From positions 1-49,211 of the forward strand of contig JAGVJP010000060.1 of assembly GCA_020051075.1 (NCBI GenBank): a DNA stretch of 49,211 nt, given 5' to 3'. Both the position numbers and the translations under genes were made by a program. The notes under the pieces are model-generated. The model worked only from the letters and a program-made list of their open reading frames with translations. It was not told where the DNA came from and did no database searches. Below are positions 47,133-47,262 of this stretch, one piece after another. This DNA is from Parachlamydiales bacterium (GTDB lineage Bacteria > Chlamydiota > Chlamydiia > Chlamydiales > Parachlamydiaceae). Each line of letters begins with the position of its first letter. The stretch's first letter is position 1.

Positions 47133-47262
47133 TTGACTGCTGGCGGCGGGCCCATACGAGTGCGTTAATGGCTCGCTAATGCGACACCATCCATTTAAAT
47201 ATGACCCTTTCGCTCCCTCAACCTCTGATGTGGTAGCACCGGGTCGAAGGAGGAAAGAGCAC
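47133..47262. mobile_element. GC-rich structured non-coding element, possible orphan IS110-family non-coding end
   Basis: Long hairpin 47204-47260 occluding AGGAGG, second helix 47141-47189; resemblance to IS110 left ends is from recall only; no transposase ORF follows. Confidence 0.4.

Follow-up and report, generated by a model that had tools for sequence, protein, structure and literature searches.

The intergenic spacer upstream of a gene for a GrpB-GNAT fusion protein contains genuine hairpins that far exceed chance expectation and are features of the minus strand, which is the sense strand of that gene. The window is the whole stretch of DNA that was analysed, namely contig JAGVJP010000060.1 of 49,211 nucleotides (contig C107 of the bin), and the element under study lies at 47133–47262. 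Three of the hairpins, designated H3, H1, and H2 in the order of the minus strand, lie inside a 1.75-kb insert, at distances of 30 to 330 nt from the GrpB-GNAT start codon on its upstream side. Neither the sequence nor a terminator scan revealed a U-tract terminator between H1/H2 and the GrpB-GNAT ATG at 47087. Since the hairpins are on the sense strand and no terminator separates H1/H2 from the gene, we read the element as part of a structured, hairpin-rich 5′ leader that is specific to this lineage and precedes GrpB-GNAT on a putative minus-strand transcript. This reading is tentative and falls somewhat short of an even chance. A leader for the GrpB-GNAT gene was among the options listed in a first-pass annotation of this DNA, which had been made from the sequence alone, and it is the option favoured here. 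Should the element prove to be transcribed and to have a function, it would exemplify a young structured leader, specific at the species level, where a gene was recently inserted, and it would help in studying the origin of regulatory RNA structure. The main effect of the analysis is to remove a tempting but unsupported annotation of the element as a bridge RNA.

Hairpins in the spacer upstream of GrpB-GNAT

The element sits in a 673-bp spacer (47088–47760) whose neighbours are the minus-strand GrpB-GNAT gene and the plus-strand accD. The description of the element as a GC-rich island holds in a relative sense, as the GC content is 0.52 in 47150–47249 and 0.27–0.40 in the rest of the spacer, to be read against 0.389 for the contig and 0.431 for the bin. 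H1 (47204–47260, minus strand) contains the 19-bp minus-strand pairing with one bulge that had been pointed out earlier, in which 47260–47242 pair with 47204–47223 and the bulge is at 47212. Between this part and a 6-nt loop are five more pairs, for a total of 24, and 1-nt bulges are present at 47212, 47224, and 47226. The four positions that had been described as A–C mismatches on the plus strand and G–U pairs on the minus strand were confirmed (47260/47204, 47258/47206, 47248/47217, and 47245/47220). A fifth G–U pair of H1 is located at 47239/47228, and all five are A–C mismatches on the plus strand. Within the stem, CCUCCUU is paired with GAGGGAG. On the plus strand, AGGAGG at 47248–47253 has no ATG at normal spacing, as had been stated in the first-pass annotation.

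The stability of H1 was compared with that of dinucleotide-shuffled sequences over 47200–47264 (65 nt). The minus-strand fold had an energy of −32.7 kcal/mol and a z-score of −4.77, and 0 of 200 shuffles were as stable. The corresponding plus-strand values were −20.4 kcal/mol and −1.15, with 27 of 200 shuffles as stable. Among 16,384 segments of 64 nt covering both strands of the 49-kb contig in steps of 6 nt, H1 on the minus strand ranked first in stability.

A second helix had been proposed at 47141–47189 with the same strand bias as H1. The helix exists, but it is smaller and its bias is weaker. Specifically, H2 (47167–47191, minus strand) has 10 pairs including two G–U pairs, an AUUA loop, and one bulge at 47185, and the z-scores for its folding are −3.31 on the minus strand and −2.13 on the plus strand. 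The weaker bias is due to an alternative helix on the plus strand, in which 47145–47152 pair with 47170–47177. H2 and H1 are connected by an AU-rich linker at 47192–47203 (minus strand).

H3 (47336–47417, minus strand) is a long hairpin that forms on the minus strand only and had been overlooked. Its G+C-rich core at 47359–47391 has 13 pairs, five of which are G–U, and the core is preceded by an A-run and followed by UUUU. The energy and z-score of the H3 region are −31.3 kcal/mol and −4.68 on the minus strand (0 of 200 shuffles) and −11.1 kcal/mol and +0.34 on the plus strand, and H3 is the third most stable of the 16,384 segments in the contig. From its predicted fold, H3 looks like an intrinsic terminator or attenuator. 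The stem is present on the minus strand only, and the tail UUUUAG has four U, while the rule of the terminator scan is five in eight; H3 is absent from the list of that scan because its tail has only four U.

Two further minus-strand hairpins were predicted. A weaker one between H3 and H1 (47272–47307) appears in minimum-free-energy folds only and has no z-score peak. A small one, AGUCAAG...CUUUGACU (47115–47141), is located 28 nt 5′ of the GrpB-GNAT ATG. The minus-strand z-score of the 395 nt of 47088–47482 taken together is −4.72, with 0 of 100 shuffles as stable, and the plus-strand z-score is −0.89. A sliding 100-nt scan along 46700–47974 gave minus-only peaks that were confined to H1 and H3, and the scores upstream of H3 were near zero in the sliding scan. 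All 12 wobble pairs of H1, H2, and H3 are G–U on the minus strand, and the helices are not interrupted by A–C. The earlier characterization of the element as structured and minus-strand is thus borne out by the folding, with H1 and H3 specific to the minus strand and H2 less strongly biased.

Gene neighbourhood, origin of the contig, and strain variation

The GrpB-GNAT fusion gene (46125–47087, minus strand, 320 aa; Pfam GrpB 1.4e-41 and Acetyltransf_1 1.2e-12) is encoded on the same strand as the element and downstream of it. On its far side is an ihfB-like gene (45723–46010, plus strand; Pfam Bac_DNA_binding 5e-27) that has its own terminator hairpin at 46035–46067. The gene on the other side of the spacer is accD (47761–48639, plus strand); its true start is probably the ATG at 47779, judging from the match of the resulting N-terminus (MNWLTNF...) to a Paracaedibacter homologue. 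Right after accD, an ORF of 121 aa that is open at the contig end (48848–49210) had no Pfam match at E 1e-5.

The end of ihfB and accD are only 19 nt apart on the same strand in Ca. Paracaedibacter symbiosus. ihfB is also located directly 5′ of accD, with a gap of about 10–32 nt, in 12 of the 15 loci compared from the Paracaedibacter order and in the loci L113, L118, and L182. This adjacency in the relatives, together with the positions of 46010 and 47761 (or 47779) here, indicates that approximately 1.75 kb has been inserted (46011–47760, relative to the gene arrangement of the Paracaedibacter order). The insert consists of the reversed GrpB-GNAT gene and the structured spacer. GrpB-GNAT genes are frequent in the Paracaedibacter order, where matches with E of at most 1e-10 were obtained in 49 of 62 genomes and the gene is located elsewhere; the best 15 of these loci show 54–65% identity to the gene in the window. 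The structured part of the spacer is bracketed by a 19-nt direct repeat on the plus strand, whose copies at 47112–47130 and 47607–47625 are 495 bp apart and identical at 17 of 19 positions.

Sequence comparisons indicate that the window is almost certainly a mis-binned alphaproteobacterial contig. Its GC content (0.389) differs from that of the bin (0.431), and its tetranucleotide composition is the most deviant among the contigs of at least 20 kb. Second copies of clpB, prfA, hisS, recJ, accA, xerD, uvrD, accD, rnhB, and mutY are present on other contigs of the bin and are 33–52% identical to those in the window. The accD product of the window has 41–46% identity to full-length homologues from 21 relatives of the bin (one more relative gave a partial match, 57% over 136 residues) and 65–67% identity to alphaproteobacterial ones, namely 67% to that of Ca. 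Paracaedibacter symbiosus and 65% to that of Azospirillum. The reported contamination of the bin is 5.7%. The mis-binning affects any comparative reading of the whole window. In particular, the blank searches among the relatives of the bin sampled the wrong clade, and the statement that the element is single-copy holds only for the small part of its genome that is present in the bin. A second GrpB-GNAT gene in the bin (G000:C74:31170-32111), which presumably belongs to the main organism of the bin, is 61% identical to that of the window and has one in-frame TGA.

Metagenome contigs provided information on strain variation. A contig of run X9 (1,385 nt) runs unbroken through H2, H1, and H3 (46100–47418), which is an indirect point for a low copy number of the element; it has five differences in 1,319 nt. 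Its sole difference inside the element is 47181 G>A, and the same change is carried by X12; it converts the loop-closing C–G pair of H2 to U–G on the minus strand and would give A–C on the plus strand. An 11-nt deletion in X12 (47192–47202; one contig, depth 5.6) removes only the H2–H1 linker. Both the substitution and the deletion are compatible with maintained minus-strand helices, each being a weak indication alone. The helices of H1–H3 are intact in the environmental strains and single-copy in the available DNA.

Beyond H3, the spacer seems to be a hot spot of rearrangement among the strains. In X9, 47419–47609 is replaced by unrelated sequence, so that the match is lost after 47418 and regained at 47610 in another contig, and this right junction falls within the second copy of the 19-nt direct repeat. 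Contigs of three runs (X9, X12, and X15) break within 47415–47459, with ends at 47415–47418. Separate contigs with higher depth (16.9–24.6 vs. about 5–6) match only these 45 nt, which hold the small palindrome GGTCTTAAGATCTTAATGACC. The segment 47415–47459 probably represents a short repeated sequence, either of the true genome or of co-occurring organisms. The contigs of X15 and X16, two runs presumed to be RNA, cover accD, 47418–47664, and parts of GrpB-GNAT, and none lies over 47133–47417; X12 is uncovered at 47232–47420. Neither gap has a bearing on expression.

Searches for homologues and known RNA families

The element had been called an orphan, and this status was borne out, as no search gave a homologue of it. 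The bin contains no further copy, and DNA and covariance-model searches of the relatives of the bin, which represent the wrong clade, gave no match. A blastn search with 47100–47420 against 401 alphaproteobacterial genomes gave seven matches of 19–40 nt, all in the AT-rich part of the query outside the element. The covariance model was built from 47128–47268 on the minus strand, comprises H1 and H2, and scores 184.5 bits against itself. A search of 62 Paracaedibacter-order genomes with the model yielded a single match of 17.7 bits with a per-genome E of 0.045, as chance predicts over 62 genomes. The model scored at most 10.5 bits at 80 accD loci and found nothing in five named genomes. Neither 72,556 plasmid records and 50,697 phage records nor viral contigs contained a match to the element.

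A comparison with Rfam, which had been suggested in the first-pass annotation, was carried out, and Rfam 15 gave 0 matches in the window at gathering thresholds. A permissive search of 46900–47900 gave eight matches, all with E of at least 1.4, and the only one over the element was mir-320 (13.5 vs. 55.5 bits, E 8.4). ARAGORN found 0 tRNA or tmRNA genes in the window. SRP RNA and RNase P RNA were ruled out as identities of the element, since both are located elsewhere in the bin. A 6S RNA model had no match in the bin and its 40 relatives (41 genomes); the same search was positive in just 5 of 14 control genomes, and the missing matches may be a matter of sensitivity.

Homologues of the GrpB-GNAT gene itself were also compared in their upstream regions. 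A comparable hairpin or sequence similarity was found upstream of none of 13 metagenomic homologues (47–62% identity) and at none of the 15 best loci of the Paracaedibacter order. The best upstream 64-nt segments at these homologues have energies of −14 to −22 kcal/mol vs. −31.8 kcal/mol here. At the 15 Paracaedibacter-order loci, the best upstream segments are similar on both strands, and at several of the 13 metagenomic loci another gene abuts the start. The absence of the element at all 28 homologues means that it is not a conserved regulator of this gene family.

A proposed structured leader and its alternatives

For the transcript, a minus-strand promoter had been proposed at some distance upstream of the element. 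The motif is indeed present at 47489–47517, with TTGACA (47517–47512), a 17-nt spacer, and TATATA (47494–47489), but it was not listed by the consensus scan. Its −35 hexamer is perfect and its −10 hexamer is weak, and the start predicted from them is near 47482. Both hexamers are unchanged in a strain contig of roughly 96% identity (X15). The consensus scan listed two overlapping promoter-like sites at 47327–47358 on the minus strand (TTTAGA-17-TAAAAT with TG, and TAGAGA-18-AATAAT), and such sites are at chance level (2 vs. 1.8 ± 1.3).

According to the leader reading, a promoter in the spacer (near 47517–47489 and/or 47358–47327) would start a transcript that runs through the hairpins into GrpB-GNAT. 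Through its stem and UUUU, H3 would cause leaky termination or attenuation, or else insulate against transcription that enters from the accD side. The near-perfect 24-bp duplex of H1 would determine processing or stability and so set how strongly the relocated GrpB-GNAT gene is expressed. Bacterial RNase III generally needs a duplex of about two helical turns, which is about the length of H1, and by analogy H1 may be a long duplex of the kind that this enzyme cuts. Similar to the RNase III-cut 5′ leaders of E. coli rnc and pnp, H1 is a long, near-perfect duplex of approximately two turns with wobble pairs in a putative 5′ untranslated region. The element has no sequence relationship to those leaders, and both its transcription and its cleavage are hypothetical. 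The comparison of H3 with terminator or attenuator leaders gives a similarly mixed picture. The G+C-rich stem, the A-run before it, the U-run after it, and the position between a candidate promoter and the gene are alike, while the short tail of four U, the distance of about 270 nt to the gene, and the lack of an evident antiterminator or aptamer are different.

Several observations stand against a leader. The promoter-like sites are at chance, the helices are unlinked to the ribosome-binding site, and the element is absent from the other GrpB-GNAT loci. Neither H1 nor H2 reaches the start codon or a recognisable ribosome-binding site of GrpB-GNAT, and sequestration of the ribosome-binding site was dropped as a mechanism because the helices stop short of the start codon. 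An apparent G–U asymmetry could also arise where DNA palindromes decay through C-to-T mutations that are biased to one strand. The structure-compatible variation amounts to one substitution and one deletion only, each weak when taken alone. A more elaborate version of the leader is unlikely: a new RNA module of about 400 nt with two one-strand hairpins of 24 to 35 bp, acting as an insulator and processing leader after the insertion in an uncultured Paracaedibacter-like alphaproteobacterium, in which H3 would block transcription from the accD side and H1 would be the dsRNA processing site. If this were true, the module would have arisen anew or been brought in, and would be a young regulatory RNA without a family.

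The main rival to the leader is that the element is a relic, stemming from the DNA by which the GrpB-GNAT segment was brought in or rearranged, in which case the hairpins would be leftover palindromes with no present function as RNA, such as single-strand-DNA recombination or replication signals or ends of a mobile element. We regard this as rather unlikely. It agrees with the location of the hairpins inside the 1.75-kb insertion between ihfB and accD, the rearrangement of the spacer among strains, the 19-nt direct repeat around 495 bp of the spacer, and the absence of the element upstream of 28 of 28 GrpB-GNAT homologues. G–T wobble pairs stabilise hairpins of single-stranded DNA as well, and the strand asymmetry alone is thus no proof of RNA. 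On the other hand, no transposase, integrase, or recognisable mobile-element end is present in 46011–47760, no further copy occurs in the bin, no plasmid, phage, or viral match was obtained, and the helices are intact although neutral decay would be expected to erode them. The ends of H1 also have no core sites of an integron attC site, and the attC identity was dropped as such core sites are missing at the helix ends. Rickettsia palindromic elements are comparable as hairpin-forming inserts of 100–150 bp, here on a symbiont-like alphaproteobacterial contig. Those elements are multi-copy, whereas the present one occurs just once in the bin and assemblies pass through it unbroken.

As an alternative to a leader that is continuous with the gene, the minus strand of the spacer might encode a free-standing small RNA, or two of them. 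One, of about 130 nt, would extend from the 47517–47489 promoter to H3, and the other might contain H1 and H2 and act in trans via CCUCCUU or GAGGGAG. The perfect −35 hexamer with a 17-nt spacer upstream, the terminator-like appearance of H3 (stem, UUUU tail, and A-run), and the anti-Shine-Dalgarno-like CCUCCUU in H1 are consistent with this possibility. It is nevertheless decidedly unlikely, given that the −10 TATATA is weak and the site was unlisted by the scan, that H3 has just four U and no terminator follows H1/H2, that CCUCCUU is buried in the 24-bp stem and not exposed in a loop, and that no Rfam family was matched at gathering thresholds.

That the element is a decayed protein-coding gene or a chance structure is very unlikely. 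Pseudogenes accumulate in genomes of the intracellular-symbiont type, and the G+C content of the island is closer to that of coding sequence than is the rest of the spacer; however, no protein similarity was found in any frame tested. The two longest ORFs across the element (84 aa on the plus strand and 59 aa on the minus strand) had no homologue among proteins of near length, and the 84-aa ORF had none among longer proteins either. Both spacer ORFs would be frameshifted by the 11-nt deletion found in one strain. All ORFs that flank accD (95 loci) or GrpB-GNAT (47 loci) in relatives were compared with the spacer by blastx, with a best E of about 1, and remnants of trpA or of an upstream GNAT gene in the spacer were dropped because nothing was found among these neighbouring genes. 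Chance is countered by the shuffles, 0 of 200 of which match H1 or H3, and by the first rank of H1 among the 16,384 segments.

The headline of the first-pass annotation was a proposed resemblance of the element to a non-coding end of an IS110 element of the bridge-RNA type. Bridge RNAs have loops that pair with 8–9 and 4–7 nt of the target and donor, and they are located at the left or right end adjoining the recombinase gene (PMC11208160). As a putative RNA, the element shares with the bridge RNA of IS110/IS1111 elements (IS621 type) the general character of a 100–200 nt structured non-coding RNA in non-coding DNA with strand-specific folding. In contrast to the internal loops of 8–9 and 4–7 nt in bridge RNA, H1 and H2 have only 1-nt bulges (three in H1 and one in H2). 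A bridge RNA also carries loop sequences that are complementary to its own element's ends and target site; the present DNA has neither element ends nor internal loops. Furthermore, the element is not adjacent to a DEDD recombinase and is single-copy in the available DNA. DEDD_Tnp_IS110 (PF01548) was absent among the 41 ORFs of the window and in the bin, which holds a small part of the true genome. IS110 transposases are present in 76 of 401 alphaproteobacterial genomes, a count that includes the unpublished G520 and was sampled in the same way as the blastn set, and Ca. Paracaedibacter symbiosus has nine scored IS110 copies. No homologue of the element was found beside IS110 transposases: the highest covariance-model scores were 18.8 bits among 30 loci from the order of the bin, which serve as a structural control only, and 16.6 bits among 29 alphaproteobacterial loci, leaving out the unpublished L240. 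The model matches near IS110 genes are long two-strand palindromes in which helix 2 is deleted, and they are generic hairpins, not relatives of the element. With no link through Rfam, a transposase, blastn, or the model, the proposed resemblance is unsupported. A transposase-less remnant of an IS110-family non-coding end is extremely unlikely: it is favoured only by the proposed resemblance and by the fact that long hairpins do flank some IS110 genes, and it is opposed by the lack of a transposase in the window or bin and of a blastn match, by the low model scores, and by the lack of internal loops.

Other identities were considered for the structured spacer. A type III toxin-antitoxin RNA was dropped, as there are no tandem repeats, and a type I toxin was dropped, as there is no small hydrophobic ORF. 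The hexamer TAGCGA in H2 resembles a motif of the single-strand origins of rolling-circle plasmids; such an origin was dropped because the hexamer is expected by chance. At the inferred start of the candidate promoter and 5′ of H3, the minus strand has a 13-codon ORF (AUG UUU GUU ... AAG AAG UAA; 47441–47482), which could be a leader peptide or a product of chance.
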